Part shown: one piece after another, positions 1 to 57,531 of the stretch | Layout: each line of letters starts with the position of its first letter | How positions within the stretch are numbered: position 1 is the stretch's first letter | Source: an uncultured Desulfobacterales bacterium | Lineage (GTDB): Bacteria; Desulfobacterota; DSM-4660; Desulfatiglandales; HGW-15 | Length of the DNA: 64,000 bases | Direction: 5' to 3' | Assembly: GCA_964443135.1 (NCBI GenBank) | Contig: CAYUBQ010000017.1 | Location: 726-64,725 of the forward strand | Made by a program: the position numbers and the translations under genes | Notes under the pieces: model-generated | What the model saw: the letters and a program-made list of their open reading frames with translations, nothing else | What the model was told of the DNA's origin: nothing | The model's database searches: none

Positions 1-136
1 CGCCTTCCTGCGTCTCCGATCGCCCCGGCCCATCCGGCGATCCGGGACCCGCTCACCGGCAAATGAGGCCGTCCGGCCCGACCCGTCCGCCAAACCGGCT
101 TCCAGCAAAGGGAGCGGTCACAAGAGGACCCGCACG

Positions 137-1747
137 ATGAACCGCACTGAAGACCCCGCGCATCCCCCCCGGGAGGAGACGTCCGCCCGATCGCAGGGCC
201 GGGTCAAGACCGTCCGCGATCGTCGATCCGGGCTGGAGCGTCGCAGCGGCCGGGATCGGCGTTCCGGATTCGACCGCCGTCGGCAGGAGGAGGCCCACCG
301 GAGTCCGGATCGGCGCACGGGTGTGGAAAGGCGCTCCGGGCGGGAACGCCGGGAAGAAGGCGATCGCCGGGGCCGGAGCGGGCTGCGGATTCCGATTTTC
401 ATCAAGATCGCCATCATGGCCACCACCCTGATCCTGGTGGAGATCGCCGCGATCGGCTTCGTGGTGCTCGAGAGGGAAAAGAGTCAGTACGTGGAGCAGC
501 TGATCGGCCTGGGAGAGAGCATGGTTCGGATCCTCACCACCAACGTCCCGGACAAGCTTCTGGGCGAGGAGGATTTGAGCCTTTACAGGCTCATGGAGGA
601 CATGGCCAGGGACGACCAGGTGGTCTTCGCCATGGTGACGGACGTGCACAAGGTCATCCGGGCCCACAGCGATCTCGAGCGGGTCGAACGGGTTTACACC
701 GCGCCGGCCGGCCTGACCTTTCTGCGCGCGTCGGAGGGCGTCATCCTGAGCACCTTCGAGCTCGGGGGGAAGGAGGTCCTGCTCTTCGAGTCGCCCCTGA
801 CCTACCAGGGTTTGGACGTGGGCCGCGTGCGCCTGGCCCTGTCCAAGGCGCAGATCCTCGAGAGCGTCCGGGAGGGCAGATCGTTTTTCCTCTACCTGGC
901 CGGGATCATGGTCGTGGTGGGGATCCTTCTGAGCCTGGCCATCAGCCTCTACTTCTCGCGCCCCATCAACAAGCTGCGGGAGAGCGTCCTCGCCGTGGGC
1001 AAGGGGGACTTCAGCCATCGGGTCGTGCTCGACCGGAAAGACGAGCTGGGCGAGCTGGGGGAGGCCATGAACCGGATGGCCGAGGGCCTGGCCCTGAAGG
1101 AGCACATCCAGGACTCCTTCGGGAAGTACGTGGCCCCGGAGATCGTGGAGATGATCCTGGCGCATCCGGAGCGACAGTGGATGCGGGGGGCACGGGTCAA
1201 TGCATCGATCCTGTTCGTCGACATCCGAGGGTTCACCACCCTGTCCGAGGACAAGGACCCCGCCTGGATCGTGGACATGCTCAACAACTACTTCACCCGG
1301 GTGACCGACACGGTCATCAGCCACGGCGGAAGCATCAACAAGTTTCTCGGGGACGAGGCCATGGCCATTTTCGGGGCGCCGATCGCCAACCGCCACCACG
1401 CAGACTCCGCGGTTCGTGCGGCCCTCGAGATCCAGAAGTCCGTCCGGCAGATCGGTGCCGAGCAGGGGCTCGGGCGGGCCGAGATCCGGGTGGGCGTGGG
1501 CGTGAACTCGGGAAACGTCGTGGCCGGCAACCTCGGTTCCGAAAAGCGGATGGAGTACACGGTCGTCGGCGACGACGTCAACGTGGCGTCCCGCTTGACG
1601 GCCATGGCCAAGCCCGGGGAAATCCTCATCAGCAAACAGACCTACGACCAGATGCGGAACAAAAACGGTCTTCGCGTGGAAGCCCGCGGCAGCGTGGCGG
1701 TCAAGGGACGCAGGATGCAGATCTCGGTGTACAACGTGGTCGCTTGA
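137..1747 (+). CDS. Membrane class III adenylate/guanylate cyclase with HAMP linker and Arg-rich repeat N-terminus
   Basis: 536-aa ORF. Two hydrophobic segments flank a ~170-aa putative sensor region. HAMP-like SRPINKLRESVLAVGKGDFSHRV..ELGELGEAMNRM. Cyclase core ILFVDIRGFTTLSE, KFLGDEAMAIFGAP, EYTVVGDDVNVASRL. Confidence 0.85.
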   Translation: MNRTEDPAHPPREETSARSQGRVKTVRDRRSGLERRSGRDRRSGFDRRRQEEAHRSPDRRTGVERRSGRERREEGDRRGRSGLRIPIFIKIAIMATTLILVEIAAIGFVVLEREKSQYVEQLIGLGESMVRILTTNVPDKLLGEEDLSLYRLMEDMARDDQVVFAMVTDVHKVIRAHSDLERVERVYTAPAGLTFLRASEGVILSTFELGGKEVLLFESPLTYQGLDVGRVRLALSKAQILESVREGRSFFLYLAGIMVVVGILLSLAISLYFSRPINKLRESVLAVGKGDFSHRVVLDRKDELGELGEAMNRMAEGLALKEHIQDSFGKYVAPEIVEMILAHPERQWMRGARVNASILFVDIRGFTTLSEDKDPAWIVDMLNNYFTRVTDTVISHGGSINKFLGDEAMAIFGAPIANRHHADSAVRAALEIQKSVRQIGAEQGLGRAEIRVGVGVNSGNVVAGNLGSEKRMEYTVVGDDVNVASRLTAMAKPGEILISKQTYDQMRNKNGLRVEARGSVAVKGRRMQISVYNVVA

Positions 1748-1825
1748 CAGGCCCGTTTTTTGCACTCATCTGGCGGAAAAGAGCCGGCCGAACCCGCGAT
1801 TCGGCCGGCTCATGGAAGGAGACCG

Positions 1826-2878
1826 ATGAAACGCCCCCCGATAGCGGTCCCTCGTGAGTGGAGCAGGATGCTGGCGTTCTGCCTGTTCCTGTTCCCTCTC
1901 ACGCTGTTTTCCTGTGCATCGCTCGCACCGAAGCAGGAACGAGAGTCCCCTCGCGCCGAACCCGCGGTGGAGCGCAGGATCTTCAGCTCGGACCGCTACC
2001 TGGTGTGTGTCCCGGGCGAAGAGACCACGGCCGAAGCGCTGGCTGCGGAGCACCTGGACGACCCCGGGGAGGCCTGGCTCGTCGAGGAGGCCAACGACGG
2101 GGCGTCCTTCGCCGCGAGCGACGCGATCGTGATTCCCCTTCGCGAAGAGAACCCCGGAGGGTTGACCGAGGACGGGTACCAGACCGTGCCGATCCTCTGT
2201 TATCACCGCTTCGGCAGGAAAAACAACGGCCCCTTGTGCGTCTCAGAGGAGACGTTCGCACGCCAGATGGCCTTCCTGGCGGAGAACGGCTACCATGCGA
2301 TCGGGATCGAGGAGCTCCTGGGCTTTCTGAACTACCGGCGGAGCCTGCCGGAGAAATCCGTTTTGATCACCATTGACGACGGTTACCGCTCGGCCTACGA
2401 GATCGCATATCCCATTCTTCGGAGGCACGGTTACACCGCCGCCCTGTTCGTGTACACCGACTTCATCGGGTCGAGCGTCAAGTCTCTGACATGGGAGCAG
2501 CTGGAGGAAATGAAGGCCGCGGGATTCGATGTGGGCTCCCACACCCTGACCCACTGCGACCTCTCGGAGAAGAGGGCGGGAGAGGACGACAGGTCCTACC
2601 GCGAGCGCGTGAGGCGGGAGCTTCTGGTGTCCAAGCGGATTCTCGACGAACGGCTGAACCAGGACACCATCGCCCTGGCCTACCCCTATGGGAACGCGTC
2701 CCCGGAGATCCTTCCGCTCTGCCACAGCCTGGGCTACCGTCTGGGTGTGACCGTCCGGCCGGGCGCCAACCCCTTTTTCGCCGATCCCCTGGCCTTGCGC
2801 CGCGAGCAGATCGTGGGGGACCAGGGTCACGACTTCCGAGATCGGCTGAAGCATTTCGAACCCGCTTCGCTTCAGTAG
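1826..2878 (+). CDS. Polysaccharide deacetylase family lipoprotein (NodB homology, PgaB-like)
   Basis: ATG at 1826 is preceded by GGAAGGAG. Lipobox LTLFSC. NodB-type motifs VLITIDDGYRSAYE and GSHTLTHCDL. Confidence 0.8.
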   Translation: MKRPPIAVPREWSRMLAFCLFLFPLTLFSCASLAPKQERESPRAEPAVERRIFSSDRYLVCVPGEETTAEALAAEHLDDPGEAWLVEEANDGASFAASDAIVIPLREENPGGLTEDGYQTVPILCYHRFGRKNNGPLCVSEETFARQMAFLAENGYHAIGIEELLGFLNYRRSLPEKSVLITIDDGYRSAYEIAYPILRRHGYTAALFVYTDFIGSSVKSLTWEQLEEMKAAGFDVGSHTLTHCDLSEKRAGEDDRSYRERVRRELLVSKRILDERLNQDTIALAYPYGNASPEILPLCHSLGYRLGVTVRPGANPFFADPLALRREQIVGDQGHDFRDRLKHFEPASLQ

Positions 2879-2885
2879 GGGATCC

Positions 2886-4103
2886 ATGAGAAGAAGCATC
2901 CTCATCGCAGCTCTCGCCCTCTTCCTGGGGCTCACCTGGTCGGGCTGTGTGACGCCGGGCGGGGAACCGGCGGCATCCGTGTCGGCCGTGAGCTCCGAGG
3001 GAGGGATCGCCGGGGAGTTTCTCTCCCGGGCGCGCGACCTGGAGAACCGGGGATTTCCGGTGCGCGCCCTGCGCCGGTACCGGATCGCTCTTACCGTCGA
3101 CCCGGAGAACCCGGAGGCCCTCGAGGCGGCCGGCCGGCTGGAGTCCCGCCTGGACGCGCGGGCCGACGAGCACTGCCGGGTCGGCCTGGCGTTTCACAAG
3201 GAGGGAAAGTACGCGCAGGCCCGGCACGAGTTCCTCACGGCGCTCCGGCTCGACCCGGATCACCCGACAGCCGCCGGGATGCTCGTCTCGCGGGAGCGGG
3301 TGCGGAGCACGCGTTACATCGTTCATCGGGTGGTTCCCGGGGAAAGCCTGTCCGCCCTGGCACAGCGCTACTACGGGGACTACCGCATGTTTCCGGAGAT
3401 CGCACGGTACAACCAGTTGAGGGATGCGACCCGGTTGACGGTGGGGCAGGAGCTCCGGATCCCGGAGATCGAAGGGGCCCCGTTTCTCACGGGCGAGGTC
3501 CCGGTGGAGACCGAGGAGAAGGCCCCGCCCGAGTACGGTCTCTGGGAGTGGGGAGCGTACGAGGCCGCGGCCGGCCGTGAGGCGGACGAGGTCGCCGGGG
3601 AGGCGGAGGAATCGGCCCGCATCACGTCCTGCCTGGCGCACGGGATCGCCCTGTTCGATCGCAGGAAGTACCGGCAGGCCGTCGTGGAGCTCGAACGGGT
3701 CCTCCATGCGAGGCCGGGCGACGAGACCGCCCGGGACTATGCGTCCAAGGCCCACTTCCGGCTGGCCGAGGATCTGTTCGAGAAACAACAGTTCCTCGCT
3801 GCACGCGAAGGATTCATGGAAGCGCTGCGCATCCGGGGGGACTGTGCCGAGTGCCACCGGTATGCCGAGAAGAGCGAGGATCTCTACAAGGAGTCCCACT
3901 ACCGCAGGGGCATGCAGTACTACAACCAGGAAAGGCTCAGAGAGGCCATGGGGGAGTGGGAGCGTGTCCGGGCCCTCGACCCGGGCTACAAGCGGGTGGA
4001 TTACCTCATTGAAAGGTCGAGGAAAATCCTTTCGAACCTCGAGGCCTTGAAAAGACACCAGGGAAAAAGCCCTGAGGAGGACGGCGGAAGCCGTCCCGAT
4101 TGA
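2886..4103 (+). CDS. TPR-repeat / LysM-domain lipoprotein
   Basis: Signal peptide plus lipobox LTWSGC. LysM-like YIVHRVVPGESLSALAQRYYGDYRMFPEIARYNQLRDATRLTVGQELRIP. TPR-like helical repeats. The stop codon TGA (4101-4103) lies inside repeat copy A. Confidence 0.8.
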   Translation: MRRSILIAALALFLGLTWSGCVTPGGEPAASVSAVSSEGGIAGEFLSRARDLENRGFPVRALRRYRIALTVDPENPEALEAAGRLESRLDARADEHCRVGLAFHKEGKYAQARHEFLTALRLDPDHPTAAGMLVSRERVRSTRYIVHRVVPGESLSALAQRYYGDYRMFPEIARYNQLRDATRLTVGQELRIPEIEGAPFLTGEVPVETEEKAPPEYGLWEWGAYEAAAGREADEVAGEAEESARITSCLAHGIALFDRRKYRQAVVELERVLHARPGDETARDYASKAHFRLAEDLFEKQQFLAAREGFMEALRIRGDCAECHRYAEKSEDLYKESHYRRGMQYYNQERLREAMGEWERVRALDPGYKRVDYLIERSRKILSNLEALKRHQGKSPEEDGGSRPD

Positions 4104-4201
4104 CGCATTCGCAGAAACCGCTCACGCGCCGCTGGAAGCGCTGGTACCCGTTGAAAACCCACGGGCAGATCTCGAGGCTTCGGGTTTTTTGCGACGTCAT
4201 C
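4098..4201 (+). repeat. Structured interspersed element, copy A (full length)
   Basis: GATTGACGCATTCGCAGAAACCGCTCACGCGCCGCTGG..GGGCAGATCTCGAGGCTTCGGGTTTTTTGCGACGTCATC. Imperfect terminal inverted repeat. Flanked by CCCGAT at 4095-4100 and 4201-4206. Confidence 0.85.
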
Positions 4202-4206
4202 CCGAT

Positions 4207-4887
4207 TCAGCGGCCTCGCAGCAGGACGTACACCGCCCCCGCTCCCCCGTCGTAGGGTCGGGCGGTGGCGAAGGCCAGGACGATCTTGCGCACGGAGCCG
4301 CTGCTGAACCAGACGGGAAGCTGCTCCTTCAGCACCGGAAAGCTCGAAGGCGAGTTCAGCCCCCGACCGTGGATGACGAGCACGCATCGCAGGCCGAGCC
4401 GGTGGCTTTCCCGAAGGAACTCCCGCACCCGGAGCCGGGCCTCGCTCTTCGTGAGCCCGTGAAGATCCACGTGGTCCTGGATCGGAAACCTCCCCTGCTT
4501 CAAGCGCCTCATCACCTTTCTTCCGACGCCCTTCACCGAGCCCTCCATGTACTCGTCCGTGAAGCTGATGTCCATCTCCACGGACCCGTGGACCAGCCGG
4601 CTGAGGTGCTCCAGGACCTCGCGGTCCTCGTCCGGGGCCGGGTGCGCCGGCCGGGGCGAGGCGGACGGGGATCTCGGTTTCCTCTTCCGCCCTCCGCGGA
4701 GGGGTTTCACGTCGGCCACGGCCTCGAGGAACGTTCTCGTCTGCTCCGAGACCGGGTCCGATTCCGGCGTCGATTCCGGCGCATCTCCGGCCGGGGCCGG
4801 TGACGGTTCTTCCGGGGGCGGTTCGACCTTCAGGTCCCGTCCCTCGAGCACGGGATTGAACACGTTCCTGCCTCTGGACTTTTTCAT
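4207..4887 (-). CDS. Smr (MutS2 C-terminal-like) domain protein
   Basis: C-terminal Smr signature VDLHGLTKSEA..CVLVIHGRGLNS. Start chosen at MKKSRGRN (4887); the longer ORF to 5028 would overlap the divergent gene's start. Confidence 0.75.
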   Translation of the reverse strand: MKKSRGRNVFNPVLEGRDLKVEPPPEEPSPAPAGDAPESTPESDPVSEQTRTFLEAVADVKPLRGGRKRKPRSPSASPRPAHPAPDEDREVLEHLSRLVHGSVEMDISFTDEYMEGSVKGVGRKVMRRLKQGRFPIQDHVDLHGLTKSEARLRVREFLRESHRLGLRCVLVIHGRGLNSPSSFPVLKEQLPVWFSSGSVRKIVLAFATARPYDGGAGAVYVLLRGR

Positions 4888-5026
4888 GAGCTCCCCCGGC
4901 CGGCGGTTCGGGTCCGATTGCACGGCCGGTGTCCGCCTTCCCTTGATTCGACCCTGTATTTCCATTATAACAGTCCCATTTCCGTGTGTGAACCCGGAGA
5001 ACCCCCAACAGAAGCGAGGAATCATC

Positions 5027-5674
5027 ATGGCGCGAGAGGACGACTACCGGAACGCCGCGGCCATCGCAAGGTCCGACCTGGCTGAAAAGGACCCGGTCCT
5101 CCTGGCGGAGCGGTGCGGGGCCGAGATCGTGGAGGAAGGGAGCGGGGCGAGGCTCGAGCTGGGGTTTCTGGGAAGACGAGTCCAGGCGGCCTGGCCCGGT
5201 GTGGTTCTTTCCCGCCCGGATTCGGACGAGGAGGTCCCGATCCAGCAGCAGGTGCTGATCCTACACTATCTCCAGGGAGCCTGGAGGTCGAGCGGGCCCC
5301 CGGTCGCCGGGGACTGGGTGGCCTTTCAGGACGTCCCTGACGGGAAGTTCTACCAGGATGCCTTCCAGAGACGGGCCAAGCTTCCACTCCTGAAGGCGTT
5401 CGGGGAGCGTCCGGAGCTCCTGGCCGACCTGGCCCGGACCGCTTACGGCGCCGAGCGGATCGATCTGGGGGACGTGGCGGTCGCCGTGGAGGCCCTGCCC
5501 AGGATTCGCGTGGCCCTGGTGGTCTGGGCCGGGGACGAGGAGTTCCCTCCGGACGGCAACATCCTGTTCGACCGCAACATCGCTTCCTACTTCTCCGCCG
5601 AGGACATCGCCTGGCTCGCCGGAATGATCGTCTACCCCCTGATGGGGATGGCGGCGGCCTCCGCAAAGGAATGA
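5027..5674 (+). CDS. DUF3786-like protein
   Basis: ATG at 5027 within ORF 4547..5674. The sequence MAREDDYRNAAAIARSDL..FQDVPDGKFYQDAFQRR..WAGDEEFPPDGNILFD resembles the DUF3786 family as I recall it. Confidence 0.6.
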   Translation: MAREDDYRNAAAIARSDLAEKDPVLLAERCGAEIVEEGSGARLELGFLGRRVQAAWPGVVLSRPDSDEEVPIQQQVLILHYLQGAWRSSGPPVAGDWVAFQDVPDGKFYQDAFQRRAKLPLLKAFGERPELLADLARTAYGAERIDLGDVAVAVEALPRIRVALVVWAGDEEFPPDGNILFDRNIASYFSAEDIAWLAGMIVYPLMGMAAASAKE

Positions 5675-5732
5675 ACGGGGCCGGCCCCGGTCCGGCCCGC
5701 GGCCCGAACCCCCGAACGACGAGGAGACGAAC

Positions 5733-6236
5733 ATGACCGAGGAGAAGAAGCCGCTGGTGTGCGTGGCCATGGGATCCGCTTCGGATGCCGATGTGATGGG
5801 CGGGTGCACGGATACCCTGAAGGAGCTGGCCATCCCCTACGAGGTCCGGGTGATCAGCGCCCACCGGACGCCCGACCGGGCCCGCGAGGTGGCCGAGGGG
5901 GCCGCCGGCCGGGGGATCGAGGTCGTCGTGGCCGGCGCCGGCTGGGCGGCCCATCTGGCCGGTGTGATCGCCGCCCACACGCCGCTCCCCGTGATCGGCG
6001 TGCCCATCGACTCGTCGCCCCTCCAGGGGCTCGACGCGCTGCTGGCCACCGTCCAGATGCCGCCCGGCGTCCCTGTGGCCACCATGGCCCTGGGAAAAGG
6101 CGGGGCCAAGAACGCGGCGGTCATGGCCGCCCGGATCCTGGCCCTCAACCACCCCGACGTCCGGTCCCGGTTGGACGCCTATCGGGAGGAGATGACCCGC
6201 AAGGTGCTCGAGGCGGCCGAAGGACTGGAGTCCTAG
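5733..6236 (+). CDS. purE: N5-carboxyaminoimidazole ribonucleotide mutase
   Basis: 167 aa. VAMGSASDADVM, VISAHRTPDR, AGAGWAAHLAGVIAAHTPLPVIGVP and VATMALG are typical PurE motifs. Confidence 0.95.
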   Translation: MTEEKKPLVCVAMGSASDADVMGGCTDTLKELAIPYEVRVISAHRTPDRAREVAEGAAGRGIEVVVAGAGWAAHLAGVIAAHTPLPVIGVPIDSSPLQGLDALLATVQMPPGVPVATMALGKGGAKNAAVMAARILALNHPDVRSRLDAYREEMTRKVLEAAEGLES

Positions 6237-6281
6237 CGCGGTCGTGGCTCGGGGCAGGCGGGGACGGGAAGGTTGCGCGTC

Positions 6282-6929
6282 ATGGGAACGATGCTCTCCC
6301 TGGAGACCCGCGAGGAACGGGAAGCGGGACTGGCGGAGGCCTGCGAGGTCCTGAGACGGGGCGGTCTGGTGGCCTTTCCGACGGAAACCTTTTACGGCCT
6401 GGCCGCGGATCCCCGGCAGGACCACGCCCTGATGCGTCTTTTCGCCGTGAAGCGCAGGAGCCCGGAGCTTCCCCTCCTCCTCCTCCTTCCTTCGAGAGAG
6501 CGCGTCGACGGGTACGCCGCTCGGACACCGGCTTCGGCCCAACGGCTCATGGACCGGTTCTGGCCCGGGGGGCTCACCCTGGTCTTCGAGGCCCTCCCTT
6601 CGCTGAGCCCGCTGCTCACCGCGGGGACCGGAACCATCGGGCTCCGCCTCTCCAGCCGGCCCCTGGCCGTGGACCTGGCCCGGCGGTTCGGGTCCGCGGT
6701 CACCGGAACGAGCGCCAACCCCTCGGGCCTCCCCCCCGCCTGCACCGCGAGGGAGGTCGCCGCCTTCCTGTCGTGTGAACCGGCGCTGATCCTGGACGGG
6801 GGAGCCACACCGGGAGGGCCGGGCTCCACGGTCCTGGACGTCACCGTCGATCCGCCGCGGATCCTCCGGGAGGGGCAGGTCTCCAGGGACGCCCTGGCCG
6901 CCTGCCTCTCCCCGGTGGTTCCGTCCTGA
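6282..6929 (+). CDS. tsaC: L-threonylcarbamoyladenylate synthase (YrdC/Sua5 family)
   Basis: VAFPTETFYGLAADP, WPGGLTLV, GTSANPSG motifs. ATG at 6282 follows GGGAAGG. Confidence 0.85.
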   Translation: MGTMLSLETREEREAGLAEACEVLRRGGLVAFPTETFYGLAADPRQDHALMRLFAVKRRSPELPLLLLLPSRERVDGYAARTPASAQRLMDRFWPGGLTLVFEALPSLSPLLTAGTGTIGLRLSSRPLAVDLARRFGSAVTGTSANPSGLPPACTAREVAAFLSCEPALILDGGATPGGPGSTVLDVTVDPPRILREGQVSRDALAACLSPVVPS

Positions 6930-7193
6930 GCGTCACCTCCGTCAATCAGAGCCCCCTCCACTCCCTGAACGGCTCTTCGAGCAGGCCGAAGCGCAGCATG
7001 CCCTGAAATCCGGGAATCTGATCGGAGAGGCCCGCATCAGGTTTGCGACAAGCGCGGCGGGGTGCAAAACCCCGCCCTGCGAAAACACCGGTTTTCATCA
7101 GCGGGGGGGTGACCGGACGCCGGTCATGGACGTTTGGAGATTGATTCCTGTGGTGAAAAGAGGTAATGAGGGCTTGGTTCGGAAAACAGAGGA

Positions 7194-7297
7194 GATGGAG
7201 TCGAAAAAGCCACAAGCCTCGAGATCTGCCCCGGAACCGTCCGAGGGCGACACCGTTTCCAGCGGCGGGTGAGCGGGTCTTTGCGAATCCGTCAGAG
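7194..7297 (-). repeat. Structured interspersed element, copy B (full length)
   Basis: Minus-strand reading CTCTGACGGATTCGCAAAGACCCGCTCACCCGCCGCTGGAAACGG..GGGGCAGATCTCGAGGCTTGTGGCTTTTTCGACTCCATC. Flanked by GAGGAG at 7189-7194 and 7295-7300. Confidence 0.85.
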
Positions 7298-7311
7298 GAG
7301 GGATGCGCGTG

Positions 7312-7551
7312 ATGAACATTCGCTGGTCCGAGGTCATGGTCGTCTTGATGGTGGCCGCCTGCCTGGGGCTCTTCGCCCCGGCATGCTCCCCCCCGGCCCC
7401 GCCGCCCGGGGTGGAATCCGGCTCTTCGGCCGGGACCTCCGAGGAGGAGGCCCCGCTGAACCGGCCCGGTTCCGCCATGGAGCCACAGGCCGACCGGGGT
7501 GAGCCGGCGCCGGCACCACCAGAGGGGGTCCCCGACGCCCACCACAACTGA
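7312..7551 (+). CDS. Small Pro-rich putative lipoprotein
   Basis: GGAGGG RBS. Signal-like MNIRWSEVMVVLMVAACLGLFAPAC. G/C-biased third codon positions. No family recognised. Confidence 0.4.
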   Translation: MNIRWSEVMVVLMVAACLGLFAPACSPPAPPPGVESGSSAGTSEEEAPLNRPGSAMEPQADRGEPAPAPPEGVPDAHHN

Positions 7552-7709
7552 GGCCTGTCCCTGACCATCGGTTCGGAATGTGAGGAGTGACCCGCTCGAG
7601 CCTCCCCTTCCGCCGATTTCGTCCCCCCGGAGGGGGGACCGGCCGCATTCCCCTGCACCGCCCGCTTTCCGGCGTCCGGTAGGCTGCTGTTCGGCCGGCC
7701 GGGGCCGTC

Positions 7710-7883
7710 TTACTTCTTCTGCCCCTGGCGCACCCACTCCCGCAAGGCTTCCCGCTCGAAACGCCACTTGTTCAGGACCATCTTCGCCGGGATTTTTCCG
7801 GCCTTGGCCAGCTTGTACACGGACCGCTTCCCCAGACGCAGAAACTCTGCGGCCTCTTCAATGGTCAAAATGTCCTTTTCCAT
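7710..7883 (-). CDS. Excisionase/AlpA-type helix-turn-helix DNA-binding protein
   Basis: MEKDILTIEEAAEFLRLGKRSVYKLAKAGKIPAKMVLNKWRFEREALREWV. AGGAG RBS upstream of the ATG at 7883. Confidence 0.75.
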   Translation of the reverse strand: MEKDILTIEEAAEFLRLGKRSVYKLAKAGKIPAKMVLNKWRFEREALREWVRQGQKK

Positions 7884-7954
7884 CTCTTTTCTCCTTTGTA
7901 ACGGATAAGTTTGATGTCCAAACATCTACAAATATCGTGCCAAAAAAGGCGAAT

Positions 7955-8235
7955 GCAGAATCTCTCCGGCCTTGGCCAGCTTGTGCCCATCCATATACGA
8001 ACGTCGGGCATGGTTGCGTTTCCAATTCAGAAAGGAGGAATTTTTGTCAAGATCAAGGAGATCGAGAGGTGACGCGGAGGCGTACTGGAGTACGCCGCAC
8101 AAGGAACCTCGCCGATCGACGATGGGATTGGCAAAAAAGACCCTTTCTGGATGGAAACCAGCTTGTACACGGATCGCTGTCCCAGCTGAGGAGCTCCGCG
8201 GCCTCCTCGATGGTCAGGATCTCCTTGTCTGCCAT
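7955..8235 (-). pseudogene. Degraded tandem copy of the HTH gene
   Basis: The 5' part (8235-8158) reads MADKEILTIEEAAELLS and then loses 1 nt relative to the intact copy. It is interrupted by 173 bp. Only ~30 nt (7984-7955) of the downstream part remain. Confidence 0.6.
7985..8157. mobile_element. 173-bp insertion inside the HTH pseudogene, flanked by a 9-bp direct repeat
   Basis: CCAGCTTGT occurs at 7976-7984 and 8158-8166, and the intact paralog has one copy at the equivalent site. Short inverted termini (CCATCCA). Internal hairpin GGCGTACTGGAGTACGCC. Confidence 0.4.
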
Positions 8236-8255
8236 GACGCGAACCCCCCAAACTT

Positions 8256-8360
8256 GACGGCGTCGCAAAAAGCCCGAATCCTCCAGATCTGCCCCTGGGA
8301 TCTCAACGGGTGATATCGTCCCCAGCGGCGGATGAGCGGGCTTTTGCGAACCCGTCGATC
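8256..8360 (-). repeat. Structured interspersed element, copy C (full length)
   Basis: Minus-strand reading GATCGACGGGTTCGCAAAAGCCCGCTCATCCGCCGCTGGGGACGATATCACCCGTTGAGATCCCAGGGGCAGATCTGGAGGATTCGGGCTTTTTGCGACGCCGTC. Confidence 0.85.
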
Positions 8361-8707
8361 ACCCGAACGAGAACGTCGGGTGTGAACGGCTTCTCGAGAT
8401 AGTCCGACACACCGGCCCACTCGGCCTCCTCCCGGAGCCCTTCGTTCCCGTATCCCGTGATCAGCACGGTGCTCAACTCCGGCAGAAGGGCCTTGGCCTC
8501 CCGAATCAGCTGCAGGCCGTCCATCCGGGGCATCCGGAAGTCGGAGATCAGAAGACGAACGGGGTCGTTTCGGGCCACCGATTCACGGATGATTTCCATG
8601 GCGCCGCCGCCGCTCCCGGCGGCCACGATCTGGAACCCGTAACTGTGGAGTCCGATTCTCAGGGCATTGAGGGTGCCCGGATCGTCGTCCACCAGGAGGA
8701 TCTTCAT
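8303..8707 (-). CDS. Single-domain response regulator (REC)
   Basis: MKILLVDDDPGTL..LLISDFRMPRMDG..LITGYG..YLEKPF. The last ~18 codons (IDGFAKARSSAAGDDITR) and the stop codon are encoded by repeat copy C. Confidence 0.85.
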   Translation of the reverse strand: MKILLVDDDPGTLNALRIGLHSYGFQIVAAGSGGGAMEIIRESVARNDPVRLLISDFRMPRMDGLQLIREAKALLPELSTVLITGYGNEGLREEAEWAGVSDYLEKPFTPDVLVRVIDGFAKARSSAAGDDITR

Positions 8708-9056
8708 GCCGGCCCGCCTCCGGGTCGAGGGTCTGGAACAGGCGCTCTCGCGGGCAACGGTCCGCTTCCGGCGGACCGCGGAACATGGGCCGAGGTCGAT
8801 CGGTAGATCGGCCCTCCCGCATAACAAACGGAACAGAGGAGCAAGGATCGTTCCACCCGGAAGGGTGAAAGGGAGAGAACGGTTCCGGGCTTCGAACGCC
8901 AGTGGGCTCGAAGGCTTACAGGGATGCATGAAAGGGTGCCTAGGGCAACAAAGAGTTCAGGCTTCGAGTCAAAATGGCGTACTCAAATGGCCATGTGAGG
9001 ATACAGGTCCTTCACAGCCCTGCGGATGGGCCGGCGCGCCATAATGGCGGCCTACG

Positions 9057-10490
9057 TCAGTTTGGCGTATAGGATTTGAGCCGTCGCTGGAGGGTGCGGA
9101 GACCGATTCCGAGGATCCGGGCGGCTCGCGTGCGGTTCCCGCCCGTGGCCTGGAGAACCGCCTCGATGTGGCGCTTTTCCACCTCCGAGAGGGGCAGGAG
9201 GTCCGAATCCCAGGCGGCAACGGACGGGCCGTCGCTCGAGGCCTCGGTCGCCAGCGATCCGGCCGTCAGGCGCCCGCCGCTTTCGACCAGGACCGCGGAC
9301 GCCACCAGGTTTTCCAGCTCGCGGACGTTGCCCGGAAACGCATAGGAATGGAGCCTCCCGGCCGCCTCGGCGTCCAGGCCCCGGATGATCTTTCCGGTTT
9401 TCGCCGCATGCTTGGAAAGGAAATGTCTGGCCAGCGGAAGGATGTCCCGTCTCCTTTCCCGCAGGGGCGGGATGTGGATGTGGCAGACATTGAGACGATA
9501 GTAGAGATCGCTTCGAAAACGGCCCCGGCGCACCTCTTCCTGGAGGTCCCGATTGGAGGCGGCGATGATCCTCACGTCCACCTTCTTGGCCCGGGTGCTG
9601 CCGAGCCGGTACAGCTCGCGCTCCTGGATGACGCGGAGGATGGCGCCCTGCAGCCCCGGATTCAGCTCGGTGATCTCGTCCAGGAACAGGGTCCCGCCGT
9701 TGGCCTCTTCGAAGAAGCCTTTCTTCTCTCCAACCGCCCCGGTGTAGGCCCCCTTGGAGTGGCCGAAGAGATCGTTCTCGAAGAGGGTCTGGCTGAGGGC
9801 CGGCATGCTGACGGGCGTGAACGGCCCCGAGGACCTCGGGCTGAGGCGGTGGATGATGTGCGCCAGCATGTCCTTCCCGACCCCGGTTTCCCCGGTAATG
9901 ACCAGGTTGTAGTCGTTGGCGGCGTAGGTTTCGGCCTCGTGGAACACCCGGGCCATGGAGGGGTCCTCGGAGATCATGTCGGAGAAGGCCTCGGGGCGGC
10001 CGAGCTCCGAGAACAGGGGACCCCTTTCGAGCATGCTCACCTTGTGGAGGAGATCGTGTCGCTGGAGGGCGTTCTGAACGGCGATGATCAGCTTCTCCCG
10101 CTTCAGGGGCTTGACGAGATAGTCGAACGCACCGTACTTCATGGCCTCCACGGCGGTGGGGGCGTCGTCCAGGGCGGTGATCACCAGGCATTCCACATCG
10201 GGATACTCGATCTTCATCCTGCGCAGAAGCTCGATGCCTCGGGTGTCGGGCAGGATCAGGTCGAGCAGGACCAGGTGGAAGGGGTGCTCCGAGAGGAGCT
10301 CCATGACCCGGTTTCCGTCGGAGACCAGGGCCGGTTCCGGCAGCCCGGCGCTTTCCAGGACGGCGCGGGTGCTCAGCAGGAGCCCCGGATCGTCGTCCAC
10401 GATCAGGATGGGGGTGTGGGCGTCCGGTACGGACTCCAGCCCCGCACCCGCCTCTCCGGCGGCGGCCGGCATGTCGGTCCTCGCGCTCAA
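9057..10490 (-). CDS. Sigma-54-dependent response regulator (NtrC/AtoC family)
   Basis: REC domain (ILIVDDDPGLL), AAA+ activator (GETGVGKDMLA, GAYTGA loop, LFLDEI) and a C-terminal Fis-type HTH (RTRAARILGIGLRTLQRRLK). Confidence 0.9.
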   Translation of the reverse strand: MSARTDMPAAAGEAGAGLESVPDAHTPILIVDDDPGLLLSTRAVLESAGLPEPALVSDGNRVMELLSEHPFHLVLLDLILPDTRGIELLRRMKIEYPDVECLVITALDDAPTAVEAMKYGAFDYLVKPLKREKLIIAVQNALQRHDLLHKVSMLERGPLFSELGRPEAFSDMISEDPSMARVFHEAETYAANDYNLVITGETGVGKDMLAHIIHRLSPRSSGPFTPVSMPALSQTLFENDLFGHSKGAYTGAVGEKKGFFEEANGGTLFLDEITELNPGLQGAILRVIQERELYRLGSTRAKKVDVRIIAASNRDLQEEVRRGRFRSDLYYRLNVCHIHIPPLRERRRDILPLARHFLSKHAAKTGKIIRGLDAEAAGRLHSYAFPGNVRELENLVASAVLVESGGRLTAGSLATEASSDGPSVAAWDSDLLPLSEVEKRHIEAVLQATGGNRTRAARILGIGLRTLQRRLKSYTPN

Positions 10491-11752
10491 CGGTCCCGTC
10501 TCTCCAGTCGGGGGAACGAGACGTGAAAGGTCGTGCCCTCGTCCCGGCGGGACTCGAACCGGATCTCCCCGTCGTGGGCCCTCACCAGGTCGTGGGTGAC
10601 CGAAAGCCCCAGGCCGGTCCCCCCCTCTTCCTGGCGGTCCGTGACGAACGGATCGAAGATCCGATCCGCAACGGCGTCGGGGACCCCCCGGCCGGAGTCC
10701 GAGACGGAGAGGAGCAGGCGGGTGCCGTCGATGCGGGTCCGGATCCGCACCTCTCCGGTCCGGCCCTCCATGGCCTGAAGGGCGTTGAGGAGAAGGTTCA
10801 GGACGATCTGCTCGAGGTTCCGGTCGTTCCCCTCCATCAGGGGCAGGGACTCGTCGAGATCCGCCCGGAGGCTCGTCCCCGCCTTGCGGAGCGTGGTCTG
10901 GGCGAGCCGCACCGCGTTTTGGACGGCCGAGTTCAGCTGGACCGGGGCCTTGTCCTTCGGGCTCGAGTTCCGGGAGAACTGCTTGAGGTCGGAGACGATC
11001 CTGGCGATGCGGTTTGCGGCCATGTCCATGTTGGCGAGGAGCTGCGGCATGTTCTCGTGGAGGAAATCGAAGGAGAGCCCGCCGTAGGTCTCCTGCGGGT
11101 GCTCGAGGGACCAGGTCCTCAAGGCGGGCTCGAGATCCTGCCAGACCCGCTGGAGCAGCGGCGTGTTGAACATGATCTGGTTGACGGGGTTGTTGATCTC
11201 GTGGGCCACGCCGGCCACGAGGAGGCCGAGCGCCTCCATCTTCTGGGACTGCAGGAGCGCCTCCCGGCTCTTGGTGAGCGCCTTCTCCGTCTCGAGCCGG
11301 TCGGTCACCTCCCTGAGCATCAGGATCAGTCCGTCCGGCCGGGCGTCCGCGCCTCGGACCGGCACCAGGGTCCAGTCCCAGTAGGTGGGGCCTTCGCCGG
11401 CCCCTTCCGCCCCTGCCGGCGGTTGGGCGAGGACGAACCGGGGCTCCCCCGAGGCCAGGGCCTCCCTGAGGGTCTCCAGGGTCCCCGGGGCCTCCGGGAA
11501 CGCGTCGAAACCCCGCCCCTTCATCTCCGCGGGACGCAGGCCGCGGAAGGCCGCGTACGGGCCGTTGACCCGAACGTAGTTCAGGTCCCGATCGAGAAGG
11601 GCGATCTGCTGGCCGGCGTTGTCGAGAATCGTTTCCAGGAGCCGGTTCGCGTCCTGGAGAAGGTCGCCGTCGCGCCGCTTCGTGAAGGAAATCGCCTCGG
11701 GCGGCCCGGCTTCTCTCCGCGCCGCCCTGTGCTTGTGCTCTCCCGTGCCCAT
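10487..11752 (-). CDS. Cytoplasmic PAS-domain sensor histidine kinase
   Basis: H-box GVAHEINNPVN, N-box LNLLLNALQAM, G-boxes DSGRGV and GTGLGLSV. Start chosen at MGTGEHK (11752) after AGAGGAAAG. Overlaps the downstream regulator by 4 nt. Confidence 0.85.
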   Translation of the reverse strand: MGTGEHKHRAARREAGPPEAISFTKRRDGDLLQDANRLLETILDNAGQQIALLDRDLNYVRVNGPYAAFRGLRPAEMKGRGFDAFPEAPGTLETLREALASGEPRFVLAQPPAGAEGAGEGPTYWDWTLVPVRGADARPDGLILMLREVTDRLETEKALTKSREALLQSQKMEALGLLVAGVAHEINNPVNQIMFNTPLLQRVWQDLEPALRTWSLEHPQETYGGLSFDFLHENMPQLLANMDMAANRIARIVSDLKQFSRNSSPKDKAPVQLNSAVQNAVRLAQTTLRKAGTSLRADLDESLPLMEGNDRNLEQIVLNLLLNALQAMEGRTGEVRIRTRIDGTRLLLSVSDSGRGVPDAVADRIFDPFVTDRQEEGGTGLGLSVTHDLVRAHDGEIRFESRRDEGTTFHVSFPRLERRDR

Positions 11753-12191
11753 CGACTTTCCTCTACGCTTCCTTTCGGGTCCGGTATCGAGGCTTTGCCC
11801 GGCTCCACAGCCTCTTCGACCGTCGGTGTCTGCCGGTTCCACCGGTTGCCGCGTCCCGCGTTCGGCGTTCCTGAAGATCCCCCCGAGCCGGACCGGGGGT
11901 CTGCGCGGTCCGCCGGGCGGACGGGTACGGAAAAGAGACGACGGCGGGTGCATGGAATCCAAATCGTCCGGCATGAACACGACTTGCCAAAACCCGGTTG
12001 TCTTCTCCGCGGTTGTGTCGAAGTGAAGATTCGACCCAGTAGTTACCACAAGAGAGCCCCAATGTCCATGGCGATTTGGCATGGGCACCGGGAAGGGACC
12101 CGCTGCGGCGCAAAGAAAGCACACAGGACGGGAAGGGCGGAGGGGTTCGTCGATTCGGGAAAAGGGCGGCGGGGTTCCGGGTACAGGGGGG

Positions 12192-13382
12192 TCAGAGCGC
12201 CGCCAGGGTGTCCGGGAACGAGTTCAGCCGCTCCATACCCCCGGGTTCGACGACGAACGTGTTCTCCACGCCCACCACGCCTTCCCCCGGGAACACCACC
12301 TTGGGCTCGAGGGCCAGGGTCATGCCCTCCTGGAGGGAGAAGTCGGCCCGGCGGGTGATGACGGGCCATTCGTCCAGCTCCAGTCCCAGGCCGTGCCCCA
12401 CGAAAGGGACGGGACGGGGAAATCCCATGAACCCCTCGACGAGACCGGCCCGCTCCACGATACGGAGGGCCCGGTCGTAGAGATCGCCGGCCCGGACGCC
12501 GGGCCGTCCGGCCCCGGCGAGCTCGTTCTGGACCTCCACCATGACCGCGTAGGCCCGCTCCATCTTTGCGGGGAGGGGACCGATGGAGAAGACCCGCGCC
12601 TGATCGGAAAGGTATCCGTCCGCGCAGGCGGTGTAGTCCACCATGACGGGCTGTCCGGGAAGGATGGGGGTCCATCCGGCGCCCTGGCTGAACCAGGGCC
12701 CCAGGCCGGCGCCCCCCGTGGGACCCACCGTACCGCTGGGTTCGGCGCCGCCGGGGCCGGCCATGATGTGACCGTAGATGCTCTCCATGTTGAAGGCCCG
12801 GGTCCGGGACAAGCCGGGGTGCCCGTGCCTCCGGTAGAACGCCTCGGAGCGGATCGCCAGCTCGGTCTCGTTCGCGGACTCCCGAATGAACGCCGGAATC
12901 CTCTCGTAGAGCCGGTCGGCGATCCGGGCCGCCGCACGCATGCGGGAGAGCTCGTACCCGGACTTGATCATCCGGAGGTTCCGCACCATGGGCGAGGCGT
13001 CCAGAAGCTCCGCCTCGGGCAGCAGGCGTCCGTACTGCAGATAGAGCGCCGCGGGGATCACGTCCAGCTCGAGACCGACGCGCCGGGGTGGTCCCTGCGA
13101 AACCTCCTCCATCCGTTCCGGGAGCTCCCGAAGGCTCTCCAGGGGGACGATCCGATCGATCCGCGCGTCCCGCCGGGCCCGCTCCAGGCTCTTGCGCACC
13201 AGGAGAAGCGGCTCGCCGGAGACCGGCACCCAGAGGTGGGCGTCCTGGTCGGTTCCAGTGAAGTAGTACAGGTCCACCTTCTGGACCAGGAGCGCGCCGT
13301 CGGCTCCCTGCGCGGCGAGGGCGTCCCGGAGACGGGAGATCCGCCCCTGGATTTCCTCCCGGTCGGGAAGAACGGGATTCAT
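12192..13382 (-). CDS. M24-family Xaa-Pro aminopeptidase/creatinase-like peptidase
   Basis: N-terminal creatinase-like domain, then the M24 pita-bread core (VMVDYTACADGYLSDQARVF, HGLGLELDEWP, EPGGMERL). Start at MNPVLPD. Confidence 0.85.
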   Translation of the reverse strand: MNPVLPDREEIQGRISRLRDALAAQGADGALLVQKVDLYYFTGTDQDAHLWVPVSGEPLLLVRKSLERARRDARIDRIVPLESLRELPERMEEVSQGPPRRVGLELDVIPAALYLQYGRLLPEAELLDASPMVRNLRMIKSGYELSRMRAAARIADRLYERIPAFIRESANETELAIRSEAFYRRHGHPGLSRTRAFNMESIYGHIMAGPGGAEPSGTVGPTGGAGLGPWFSQGAGWTPILPGQPVMVDYTACADGYLSDQARVFSIGPLPAKMERAYAVMVEVQNELAGAGRPGVRAGDLYDRALRIVERAGLVEGFMGFPRPVPFVGHGLGLELDEWPVITRRADFSLQEGMTLALEPKVVFPGEGVVGVENTFVVEPGGMERLNSFPDTLAAL

Positions 13383-13582
13383 GCCATCGGGCTCCTTTTC
13401 CGGCCAAGCGGTTCGTGAGGGTCTCGGCGGTGCGGCTCCCGCGAGGCCGTCATTCTTATGTCCCGGGATCGTTCTGTCAAACCCTTTCTTCCCCGGCCTG
13501 GACCTCCCTTGACTTCGGGCGAAAAAACCCCTATGGGACAGGGGAGCGCCGCTGTCGCCGGAAAAGAGAGGACTGAGCCGAG

Positions 13583-14494
13583 ATGAACGATCTGCACGCA
13601 AGGATTCGAAAGCTCGTGGAGGAGCGGAACGCCGTCATCCTCGCGCACAACTACCAGGTCCCGGAGGTCCAGGACGTGGCCGACATGTGCGGGGACTCCC
13701 TCGAGCTCTCCATGAGGGCCGCCCGGACCGAGGCCGACGTGATCCTCTTCTGCGGGGTGAGGTTCATGGCGGAGACCGCCGCCGTCCTCTCCCCGGACAA
13801 GACGGTGATCCTGGCCGCGGAACAGGCGGGATGCCCCATGGCCGATATGATCAACGAGGAGGACGTGCGGCGCAGGAGGGCGGATCGGCCGGATCTCTTC
13901 GTGCTCAGCTACGTGAACACCACCGCCGAGGTGAAGGCGGAGAGCGACATGTGCTGCACCTCGGCCAACGCCGTACAGGTGGTGAGGAGCATCGATCCCG
14001 AACGGCGGATCTTCATGACCCCGGACCGCAACCTGGCCCGGTACACCATCCGAGCAACCGGCCGGGAGATGGACTACTGGGACGGGTACTGCATCGTTCA
14101 CCACAGGCTGACCGCCGATCGCGTGAAGGCGGTCAAGGCGGAACACCCGGACGGCCTGTTCGTGGCCCACCCCGAGTGTCGCCCCGAGGTCATCGACCTG
14201 GCGGATGCCGTTCACAGCACCTCGGGCATGATCGCCCTGGCCCGCGAGTCCGATCACCGAAAGTTCATCATCGGGACCGAGACCGGGCTCCTCTATCCCC
14301 TTTCCAAGGCCGCTCCCGACAAGGAGTTCGTCCCCGCCGACCCCGGCATGGTCTGCAAGAACATGAAAAAGACCGGGCTTCCCGAGGTCCTGAGCGCCCT
14401 GGAGCGGCTCTCCCCCGTCGTGTCCGTGGCCGAGGAGGTCCGGGTCCGGGCCAGGCGGGCCGTGGACCGCATGCTGGCCGTCCCCCGGGAGTGA
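13583..14494 (+). CDS. nadA: Quinolinate synthase
   Basis: VILAHNYQVPEVQDVAD..GDSLELS, VRFMAETA, SYVNTTAEVKA, CTSANA are typical NadA motifs. Confidence 0.95.
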   Translation: MNDLHARIRKLVEERNAVILAHNYQVPEVQDVADMCGDSLELSMRAARTEADVILFCGVRFMAETAAVLSPDKTVILAAEQAGCPMADMINEEDVRRRRADRPDLFVLSYVNTTAEVKAESDMCCTSANAVQVVRSIDPERRIFMTPDRNLARYTIRATGREMDYWDGYCIVHHRLTADRVKAVKAEHPDGLFVAHPECRPEVIDLADAVHSTSGMIALARESDHRKFIIGTETGLLYPLSKAAPDKEFVPADPGMVCKNMKKTGLPEVLSALERLSPVVSVAEEVRVRARRAVDRMLAVPRE

Positions 14495-14514
14495 AGGGGT
14501 GAGCGCGAATCCCC

Positions 14515-16149
14515 ATGCCTGACAGCCCCCGGGAAATCAAGGCCACCGTGGAGACCCTCCGGAAGCTGTTCATCATGCCGGACTCGCCGGACAAGTTCGT
14601 CGAGTTCGGGAACGAGCTCCTGGAGATGATCCACGACTTCTTCCGCGAGAAGGGGGGAATCCACAGCAGCGTCTCCCTGCCCGAGCTGAGCCGGATCTTC
14701 AGCCGGACCGCCGTTCCCGGCCACCCCATGCTCATCAAGGACGTCCTGGCGGAGATCAAGGACGAGGTCATCGCCCACTCCGTGAAGGTGGGGAACCCCT
14801 ACTACATCGGCCACATGATCAGTCCCGTGCCCTACTTCATGATCCTGCTCGAGATGATCATCGCCGCCCTCAACCAGAACCAGGTGAAGATCGAGACCGC
14901 CAAGGCCTCCAGCTTCGTGGAGCGGGAGCTCGTCACCTGGTTTCACCGGCTCGTGTTCGGCCGCACCGACCGCTTCTACGAGAAGAACGTGCAGAACCCC
15001 CGGGTGAGCCTGGGAAACGTGACCTCCGACGGGACCCTGGCCAACTTCACCGCCCTGGCCGTGGCCCGGGAAAAGGCCTTTCCGGCCGAGGGCGGCTTCG
15101 GCGGGGTCCGAAAGGAGGGCATGGCGCGGGCCCTCGCGCACCACCGGTGCCGCCGCGGCGTGATCCTGGTGTCGGCCCGCGGGCACTACTCCATCGCCAA
15201 GGCGGCCAACCTGCTGGGCCTGGGATCGGACAACGTGCTGAGCGTGCCCGTGGACCCGGACAACCGCATGGACCCGGCCAAGCTGAGACGCCGGGTGCGA
15301 TCCCTGGGAACGGACGAGCGGGTCGTCGCCGTCGTGGGGGTGGCCGGCACCACGGAGACCGGGAACATCGACGACCTGGAGGCGGTGGCGGAGATCGGGC
15401 GGGAGGCCGGAGCTCACGTGCACGTGGACGCCTGCTGGGGAGGAAGCGTGCTGCTCGTGGACGACTACCGGCCCCTCTTCCGGGGCGTCGAGCGGGCCGA
15501 CTCCGTGTCCATCGACGCCCACAAGCTCCTCTACTGCCCCATGGCCATGGGCATGGTCCTGTTCCGGAGCGAGCGGGACCTGAACCTCCTGAAGCACACC
15601 TCCAACTACATCATCCGCCGGAACTCCGTGGACACGGGGCGGTTCACGATCGAGGGCTCCCGCCCCTTCTCGGCGCTCAAGCCCTGGGCCTCCCTGAAGA
15701 TCCTCGGACGGCAGGGGTACCGGCTCCTGTTCGAGAGCGCCCGCAGGAACACGGAGACCCTCCGGGACCTCCTGGAGCGGGACGGAAACTTCGAGGTCAC
15801 CAACCGTCCGGAGCTCTTCATCCTGAACTACCGGTTCGTGCCCGGGACGGTGCAGGCGTTCCTGCCCGGGGCGGAGGCCGACACCCGGAAGGTCAACCGC
15901 CTGGTGAACGCCCTCAACGTCAAGCTCCACAAGGCGCTTCGAAGGGACGACACCACGTTCGTCTCCCGCACCACGCTGGAGTCCACGCGGTACCGGCCCC
16001 AGCGGATCGTGGTCCTGCGGGCCGTTCTCTCCAACCCCTTGACCGACCGGGGCGTGCTCGAGGAGATCGTCAGGACCCAGGCCCGGATCGGGCTCGAGAT
16101 CTGGCGGGAGTTCGAGCCCGCCTTCCGCAGAACTGTAATGGCGTCGTAA
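14515..16149 (+). CDS. Group II PLP-dependent decarboxylase
   Basis: 544 aa. PLP-lysine motif SIDAHKLLYCPMAMGMVLF and GNVTSDGTLANFTAL. The stop codon TAA (16147-16149) lies inside repeat copy D. Confidence 0.85.
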   Translation: MPDSPREIKATVETLRKLFIMPDSPDKFVEFGNELLEMIHDFFREKGGIHSSVSLPELSRIFSRTAVPGHPMLIKDVLAEIKDEVIAHSVKVGNPYYIGHMISPVPYFMILLEMIIAALNQNQVKIETAKASSFVERELVTWFHRLVFGRTDRFYEKNVQNPRVSLGNVTSDGTLANFTALAVAREKAFPAEGGFGGVRKEGMARALAHHRCRRGVILVSARGHYSIAKAANLLGLGSDNVLSVPVDPDNRMDPAKLRRRVRSLGTDERVVAVVGVAGTTETGNIDDLEAVAEIGREAGAHVHVDACWGGSVLLVDDYRPLFRGVERADSVSIDAHKLLYCPMAMGMVLFRSERDLNLLKHTSNYIIRRNSVDTGRFTIEGSRPFSALKPWASLKILGRQGYRLLFESARRNTETLRDLLERDGNFEVTNRPELFILNYRFVPGTVQAFLPGAEADTRKVNRLVNALNVKLHKALRRDDTTFVSRTTLESTRYRPQRIVVLRAVLSNPLTDRGVLEEIVRTQARIGLEIWREFEPAFRRTVMAS

Positions 16150-17010: not shown

Positions 17011-17163
17011 CAACGAGCTCCTGAAGAGGGTTGTGCATCTCCGGTCACCTTCGCAGGCATCATAGGTCAAACGGGACGCCCCTTCAAGTCGTGTGCATGC
17101 CCCTCTTCTTCTCAACGCTTCCGGGATTCACCGTCGCTCTGGTCGTCCTGCCGCTCCCCGGGC

Positions 17164-57511: not shown

Positions 57512-57531
57512 GGCGTGTGAAATCGCTATTC

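Follow-up and report, generated by a model that had tools for sequence, protein, structure and literature searches.

A family of short repeats dispersed over 64,000 nucleotides of contig CAYUBQ010000017.1 from an uncultured Desulfobacterales bacterium (this whole stretch is referred to as the window) very probably constitutes a family of prokaryotic MITEs (miniature inverted-repeat transposable elements), i.e., non-autonomous, non-coding elements of 100–101 bp. Three lines of evidence carried this assignment: direct repeats flanking the copies, orthologous sites in related genomes that lack the element, and near-identical copies at dispersed loci. Together, they demonstrate that the family has been mobile. 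The window has a composition of 65% G+C. Repeat finding, a profile search and manual alignment revealed about ten copies in its 64 kb, i.e., about one copy per 6 kb. Six of these are full copies (A to F), one is internally deleted, and three are fragments or degenerate. Their positions in the window and those of their target-site duplications, where present, are as follows.

4096–4101, plus strand: left target-site duplication of copy A, CCGATT; a single CCGATT stands at the empty site of the related contig L119
4102–4201, plus strand: copy A, 100 bp, GACG...GTCATC, found by the repeat and profile searches
4202–4207, plus strand: right target-site duplication of copy A, CCGATT; its final T is the first base of the minus-strand Smr stop codon
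7188–7193, plus strand: first target-site duplication of copy B, AGAGGA (TCCTCT in element orientation)
7194–7293, minus strand: copy B, 100 bp; the colinear empty site of the related contig L114 is 106 bp shorter
7294–7299, plus strand: second target-site duplication of copy B, AGAGGA, in overlap with the Shine-Dalgarno-like motif (GAGGAG) of the open reading frame (ORF) that lies downstream
8256–8356, minus strand: copy C, 101 bp, flanks without match; inside the 3' end of a response-regulator ORF
16137–16236, minus strand: copy D, 100 bp, flanks match at 3 of 6 positions
17161–17208, minus strand: left-arm fragment of the element
25667–25718, minus strand: internally deleted copy, 52 bp; both ends present, centre gone
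29792–29892, plus strand: copy E, 101 bp, flanks without match; 30 bp downstream of ilvC
33585–33590, plus strand: first target-site duplication of copy F, AAACCT (AGGTTT in element orientation); perfect in the corrected frame described below
33591–33691, minus strand: copy F, 101 bp
33692–33697, plus strand: second target-site duplication of copy F, AAACCT
34479–34508, plus strand: short left-end fragment of the element
62490–62611, minus strand: degenerate copy with intact left arm, diverged interior and recognisable right end; an orthologous copy is present in the related contig L126

The window copies were complemented by copies from related DNA. A first scan of the genome collection with the loose pattern CCGCTCAYSCGCCGCYGG matched random GC-rich DNA, and only 8 of the 113 loci listed contained true copies. 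With a profile of the window copies, true copies were found, among the matches listed, in three species represented by metagenome-assembled genomes (MAGs), namely the “uncultured Desulfobacterales” binchicken_co8_385 and SRP332253_co2_163 and the “Deltaproteobacteria” Tobar14m-G17. A 22-mer specific for the left end retrieved 66 metagenome contigs of the Joint Genome Institute (JGI), mostly from Ga0207797 and some from Ga0272444. In about 730 kb of related DNA, the nhmmer profile gave 130 matches, 95 of them at full length. The set used for analysis comprised 82 non-redundant full copies with both flanks present, drawn from the window, the three related MAGs and the JGI metagenomes. Among the loci collected, copies were seen only in uncultured Desulfobacterales-like lineages.

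The initial annotation of this DNA had delimited the element as TGRCG...CNYCAT between 6-bp direct repeats. The 6-mers it named are present, with CCCGAT at 4095–4100 and 4201–4206 (copy A), GAGGAG at 7189–7194 and 7295–7300 (copy B), and AACCTG at 33586–33591 opposite AACCTA at 33693–33698 (copy F). The statistical scoring of flanks it had proposed was carried out: in its frame (TGACG...CCAT plus 6 bp), 20 of the 82 copies showed perfect repeats, and 20 more differed by one mismatch. In comparison, when left and right flanks were paired anew at random, a control that preserves composition and any target bias, the mean was 0.64 perfect pairs and the maximum four (2000 permutations). Thus, chance was excluded as an explanation of the flanking repeats. 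For the window alone, two perfect copies out of seven correspond to p of about 1e-3 at a per-copy chance rate of about 0.008.

The exact boundary of this definition was one base off. The base following ...CAT was C in 78 of the 82 right flanks, and its match to the left flank was merely at chance level (0.39); hence, this C was assigned to the element. The T of TGACG, on the other hand, had a counterpart T at right-flank position +7 in 79 of the 82 copies, as read from a position-specific match matrix, and this T was therefore assigned to the duplication. The symmetry of TGACG and CGTCA turned out to be a peculiarity of copy A rather than a family-wide property. With these boundaries, the element reads 5'-GAYG...CRTC-3' and is 100–101 bp long, and full copies across the collected set range from 98 to 103 bp. 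Its terminal inverted repeats of about 20 bp are imperfect, with the form GAYGSAKTCGCAAAAA(S)CCCG. The left end GACGCATTCGCAAAAACCCG and the reverse-complemented right end GATGGAGTCGCAAAAAGCCCG agree, ungapped, at 13 of their first 16 positions; aligned as GACGCATTCGCAAAAA and GATGGAGTCGCAAAAA, the ends share 13 of 16 positions, followed by a 1-nt indel and then CCCG.

In the corrected frame, the number of copies with perfect duplications rose to 41 of 82 (33 with 6 bp and 8 with 7 bp), as compared to about 1.2 after permutation. A target-site duplication of 6 bp, as initially proposed, was retained, with 7 bp in a minority of the copies. Copy A is flanked by CCGATT/CCGATT and copy B, in element orientation, by TCCTCT/TCCTCT. 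Copy F, a 5/6 match in the initial frame, improves to 6/6 in the corrected one (AGGTTT/AGGTTT in element orientation). The flanks of copies C, D and E, described from the start as poorly matched, remained unmatched after the correction. On the right side of copy C, the DNA is rearranged: it consists of a duplicated HTH_17 pseudogene region without colinearity to the relatives, and this rearrangement likely explains why copy C lacks matching flanks.

The 32 reconstructed perfect sites gave the target consensus (C)A-N-(G)-W-T-T(C/G). Other ways to divide the junctions were considered. A duplication of 4 bp with TGA...TCA ends is disfavoured, as the right-flank base at +2, in copies where it is not A, still agrees with the left flank in about 9 of 16 (a hand tally from the flank table, the position counts having been computed). 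A 5-bp duplication with an invariant T (TGACG...CATC) and a 6-bp duplication are not separated by flank matching alone; the latter is preferred because only in that frame are the ends symmetric without a gap.

Empty sites, which the initial annotation had suggested looking for in related strains, were found for copies A and B. The Smr-domain protein encoded beside copy A has relatives at 84–89% identity, on contigs that are syntenic with positions 1–16,000 of the window. Site A is empty in contigs L114–L117 and L119–L121. In L119–L121, one ATCGGG (CCCGAT in reverse complement) comes after the Smr stop codon, and the end of the TPR/LysM gene follows. In L114–L117, ATCCGG occupies the position of the 6-mer, and no element is present. 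The same copy A insertion is found in L118, which is the closest relative at 93% nucleotide identity. Since copy A is shared with L118 and its site is empty in the other two lineages, the insertion predates the split between the window and L118 and postdates the split from those lineages. The L118 orthologue of copy A (3819–3899) has lost 38 bp, equal to the GACG end plus one repeat, and illustrates decay into one-armed fragments such as those at 17161–17208 and 34479–34508 of the window.

At site B, L114 is empty and reads CATCCCTCCTTTGATTTCCGAACC, and the window without the element and one repeat reads CATCCCTCCTCTGTTTTCCGAACC. Over this junction of about 24 bp, L114 and the trimmed window are equal in length and colinear, with two substitutions. 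Thus, the window carries exactly 106 extra bases, i.e., 100 of the element and 6 of the duplication. A further, approximate case of presence and absence was provided by L070 and L157. L114 also harbors an independent insertion of its own at 7743–7841, set against about 7040–7110 of the window and about 70 bp away from the empty B site. The intergenic region between the Sua5 gene and the small ORF was therefore struck independently in two lineages, by copy B in the window and by a different insertion in L114.

On average, two copies differ at about 20 of the 104 aligned columns. Several pairs, e.g., L134/L163, L145/L151 and L171/L181, however, differ at only 1–2 of 101 positions despite their different loci and flanks. 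Thus, the family moved recently in the Ga0207797 population. In addition, head-to-tail junctions, with a right end followed by a spacer of 6–8 bp and the next left end, number at least 12. Arrays of two to three copies lie at L164 1652–1858, L187 1821–2136, L180 625–832, L138 6219–6428, L159 (about 4313–4431), L145 (about 2911–3120) and L131 (about 10380–10590). In several arrays, the spacer is identical to the outer flanks, e.g., AAGATT occurs three times in L164, and array neighbours may differ by just 1–2 bases. Each insertion would generate the preferred target anew at its junctions, C-ANNWTT-G on the left and C-ANNWTT-C/G on the right. Re-insertion into the duplication of a resident copy would give rise to head-to-tail arrays sharing one spacer, and unequal crossing-over could be expected to leave the same picture.

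Identical spacers and nearly identical array neighbours would also suit a spread of the family as a whole through duplication or recombination at the local scale, e.g., by unequal crossing-over at short repeats, with the flank matches being scars or chance. This explanation is extremely improbable. Most copies are solitary and unlinked, and each has its own distinct duplicated 6-mer; near-identical copies occur at different loci with different flanks; presence and absence at orthologous sites are precise; and the permutation controls exclude chance. It is thus largely refuted by the dispersed copies with site-specific duplications, although local duplication may contribute to the arrays. Apart from the arrays, a 330-bp variant of the element was observed in L007 (576–905), with both arms intact and about 225 bp extra in the central loop. 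This insert contains a small ORF (MTLGHEKLLSRL...) and short repeats of the GATTTCGAT type, and may be a second element nested inside the first.

The lack of coding capacity that had been noted at the outset was confirmed across the copies. No ORF is conserved, many copies contain in-frame stops, and indels shift the frame. A reverse-strand frame starting from the conserved terminal ATG (MESQKAR.LEICPW...) is open through the element in some copies. A coding mini-protein (MTSQK...CPW...) was nevertheless rejected on account of the indels and stops between copies. The 173-aa protein P0121 from a JGI contig, assigned to the Na+/H+ exchangers (Pfam PF00999), shares 88% identity with the terminal-ATG peptide; its gene call apparently extends into an element copy.

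Mobility of the copies would depend on a transposase acting in trans that recognises the inverted ends and cuts the target with a stagger of 6–7 bp. Repair of the gaps after such staggered cuts would produce the target duplication. The mobiliser would most probably be of the DDE type and encoded elsewhere in the genome. A Pfam scan of about 20 of the roughly 50 predicted ORFs of the window found no transposase, in agreement with the initial annotation.

Several observations weigh against the MITE assignment. First, half of the copies have no perfect duplication, among them C, D and E in the window. Second, an autonomous relative was sought in several ways: inverted pairs of terminal repeats at a spacing of 130–4000 bp were absent from the window and about 730 kb of related DNA, and an all-versus-all BLAST of the latter yielded no multi-copy segments longer than 250 bp. 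A blastn search against plasmids returned no autonomous element, a scan of viral contigs for the terminal-repeat pattern gave random matches only, and no database protein starts with the terminal-ATG peptide except the Na+/H+ exchanger call that enters a copy. The enzyme and its DDE mechanism are thus inferred from the duplication alone. Third, the census covers the 64-kb window and related loci rather than the whole source genome. Fourth, two short internal helices covary (alignment columns 5/28, 6/27 and 38/60), and the neutral decay of a selfish element requires no such pairing.

Insertion sequence (IS) families with duplications of about 6 bp are candidate mobilisers. Members of IS481 mostly generate 6-bp duplications and have TGT...ACA ends (PMC10045372). 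An IS481-derived element would fit the 6-bp duplication, but it was rejected because the termini are GA...TC and not TGT...ACA. With one duplicated base added on either side, the ends become TGA...TCA, as against TGT...ACA for IS481. Termini of the TG...CA type would imply a 4-bp duplication, which is contradicted by the matching of the +2 base. Duplications of 6–7 bp are made by the ISNCY/ISDol1 group, first found in a Desulfobacterales genome, and by Tn552, those of IS1634 measure 5–6 bp and those of IS21 4–8 bp. The duplication of the element (6, at times 7 bp) falls in the range of all four, a comparison that concerns length and not the ends. A 1.1-kb extra segment of L157 was considered as the parent IS and discarded, as it is an ordinary gene.

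The covarying positions were analyzed further. Columns 5 and 28 pair in 76 of 81 copies (C-G in 44, G-C in 32), the other 5 being exceptions, and their mutual information of 0.88 bit is the maximum of the alignment, well above that of adjacent polymorphic sites. For columns 6/27, all 24 variant copies form standard pairs. Columns 38/60 hold G-C in 29 copies, A-U in 18, C-G in 5, U-G in 5 and G-U in 3. In copy A, the covarying columns lie roughly at 4106/4128 and 4137/4158. The covariation score was 0.250, as compared to a mean of 0.136 after shuffling (none of 500 shuffles reached the observed value), and slid partners scored 0.10 or lower. A tree computed from the other columns does not recover the 5/28 states as monophyletic and requires 17 parsimony changes for them; distances within and between states are similar. 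Thus, the coupling of columns 5 and 28 does not derive from subfamily structure. When pairing in copies with perfect duplications was compared with that in the remaining copies in order to date the constraint, no difference was found.

As judged from sequence covariation, the helices are taken to reflect a real constraint, which could act either on source copies through mobility or on resident copies through transcripts. That the left-arm and central hairpins are actually required, be it by an unrecognised transposase that reads folded DNA and yet duplicates 6–7 bp or by an exapted RNA role in termination or transcript stability, is rather unlikely; the element would then be more than a parasite in decay. 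Interest in the family would rise only if the paired positions or the transposase reflected an unusual mobilisation mechanism.

If the copies were instead structured RNA genes or cis-regulatory RNAs (a small RNA, a terminator or a hairpin for mRNA stability), the flanking repeats would be incidental, and the covariation beyond shuffled and slid controls, independent of subfamily structure at columns 5/28, would be accounted for. The predicted foldback of the whole element, with about -33 kcal/mol as RNA and -18.5 kcal/mol (z = -2.0) as DNA, points in the same direction, as does a hairpin followed by a T-run that a simple scan detected within copies A and D. This hairpin, however, is not conserved in the family, and the long foldback was rejected as a selected structure: it showed 8 compensatory pairs as compared to 7–10 in slid controls, and many one-sided disruptions. 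Rfam 15 gave no matches in the window at gathering thresholds and, over copy E, just chance-level matches at E-values up to 10. Orientation relative to neighbouring genes showed no clear bias, with 13 copies in antisense and 7 co-oriented. Moreover, mobility of the family is evident from duplications, empty sites and near-identical dispersed copies. This explanation is quite improbable as a replacement for the MITE assignment; the two are compatible in that selection could act on a MITE.

The compensatory changes in the left-arm hairpin would equally suit an enzyme that recognises hairpins, and the copies are hairpin-forming, intergenic and very abundant, as are REP/BIME-like and IS200/IS605-derived palindromic elements, which move as single-stranded DNA by means of an HUH enzyme (RAYT/TnpA). 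Those systems insert next to a fixed motif of four or five nucleotides and duplicate no target sequence. In contrast, the element studied here duplicates a variable target of 6–7 bp that is present in a single copy at empty sites, and no RAYT/TnpA gene was found near the copies among the flanking ORFs scanned. An origin of this kind is very improbable.

The family combines small size, absence of coding capacity, inverted ends, a target duplication, presence and absence at orthologous sites, and dispersal in multiple copies. MITEs have been described as shorter than 500 bp, with inverted ends, direct repeats around younger copies, truncated copies, intergenic positions and a stem-loop (PMC10969869). 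The element fits every one of these traits except for an identified parent IS. An internally deleted derivative, which the initial annotation had cited, is represented by the 52-bp copy at 25667–25718 with both ends, and the proposed non-autonomous transposable element is supported by the flanking repeats, the empty sites and the lack of an ORF. Taken together, this is a well-supported new MITE family of an ordinary, known type.

The closest parallels are Correia/NEMIS of Neisseria, ERIC of enterobacteria, RUP of S. pneumoniae and MITEAba12 of Acinetobacter (PMC10969869), which are likewise short and non-coding with inverted ends and flanking repeats, occur in many copies that include truncated and internally deleted ones, are situated in intergenic DNA or at 3' ends, and have a predicted stem-loop. 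No sequence similarity to these families was detected, and none was expected. Correia and RUP duplicate TA, whereas a target of the A...TT type is duplicated over 6–7 bp here. The element itself is not AT-rich, although its target is, and head-to-tail arrays are unusually frequent compared to known MITEs. Within the former Deltaproteobacteria, the MITE Chunjie from Geobacter uraniireducens measures 178–235 bp (PMC10969869). It shares conserved inverted ends, direct repeats, many partial copies and tolerated insertion within operons with the present element, which at 100–101 bp is set apart from it by length. A text search returned no mention of the element sequence in the literature covered.

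Other assignments were discarded. An outward promoter based on TTGACG is not followed by a -10 element, and a sigma-54 motif has the wrong spacing and is not conserved. The resemblance to Tn3-like ends is superficial only; Tn3 makes a 5-bp duplication. For an integron attC site, the cassette structure is missing.

All ten window copies are located between genes or at gene ends, as judged from the Pfam assignments of the flanking genes. Of the 34 copies that were classified in the wider set, 10 show an overlap of more than 10 nt with a crudely predicted ORF. Copy A lies between the convergent 3' ends of the TPR/LysM gene and the Smr gene. The natural stop of the TPR ORF would be at about 4073–4075; compared to its orthologues, this ORF carries a 1-nt frameshift and, as a consequence, apparently uses a TGA of the element. 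Copy B is inserted in the ribosome-binding region (GAGGAG) upstream of an 82-aa lipoprotein-like ORF (7303–7551), and its duplication keeps one GAGGAG motif at the right distance from the start codon. Copy C occupies the non-conserved tail of the response regulator, where 17 element-encoded residues and a stop replace the 23-aa tail of the L114 orthologue. Copy D stands between the convergent ends of a pyridoxal phosphate (PLP)-dependent decarboxylase gene and a SpoU-methylase gene, and the last codons and the stop of the decarboxylase gene are provided by the element. Copy F sits upstream of a gene for a DegT-type aminotransferase, within a divergent promoter region.

With about one copy every 6 kb, the element is a substantial shaper of intergenic DNA in the window, and its effects on gene ends are visible: C-terminal tails and stop codons are newly supplied, and a ribosome-binding site is duplicated. 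In annotation, the element accounts for spurious small ORFs and odd gene extensions, and for assembly and binning, its arrays mark sequence prone to collapse. A MITE family documented with regard to its precise termini, the length of the duplication, the preferred target, empty sites and signs of recent activity is thereby recorded for the Desulfobacterales-like MAGs, an uncultured group that has received little study. The transposase and the paired internal positions provide testable leads.

Some genes of the window appear to be split or to carry frameshifts. In the TPR/LysM gene, 1 nt is deleted close to the natural stop (about 4060–4103), the HTH_17 (excisionase-like) gene is duplicated (7710–7925 and 8027–8251) with the second copy frameshifted, and an NTP-transferase (rmlA-like) gene at 58784–59878 is broken up into two ORFs. 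Either these are true pseudogenes, or indel errors in the assembly have produced them. Finally, positions 57530–62176 form an extra segment of 4.6 kb relative to contig L126, whose flanks are 92–96% identical. The segment is bounded by a 300-bp direct repeat (57532–57831 and 63454–63753; 90% identity). Within it lie pieces of rml genes resembling rmlC and rmlA, an ORF similar to RHH antitoxins, and the greater part of an AAA_14/DUF4143 ATPase gene. Either the segment was duplicated or inserted in the window, or L126 has lost it by deletion.

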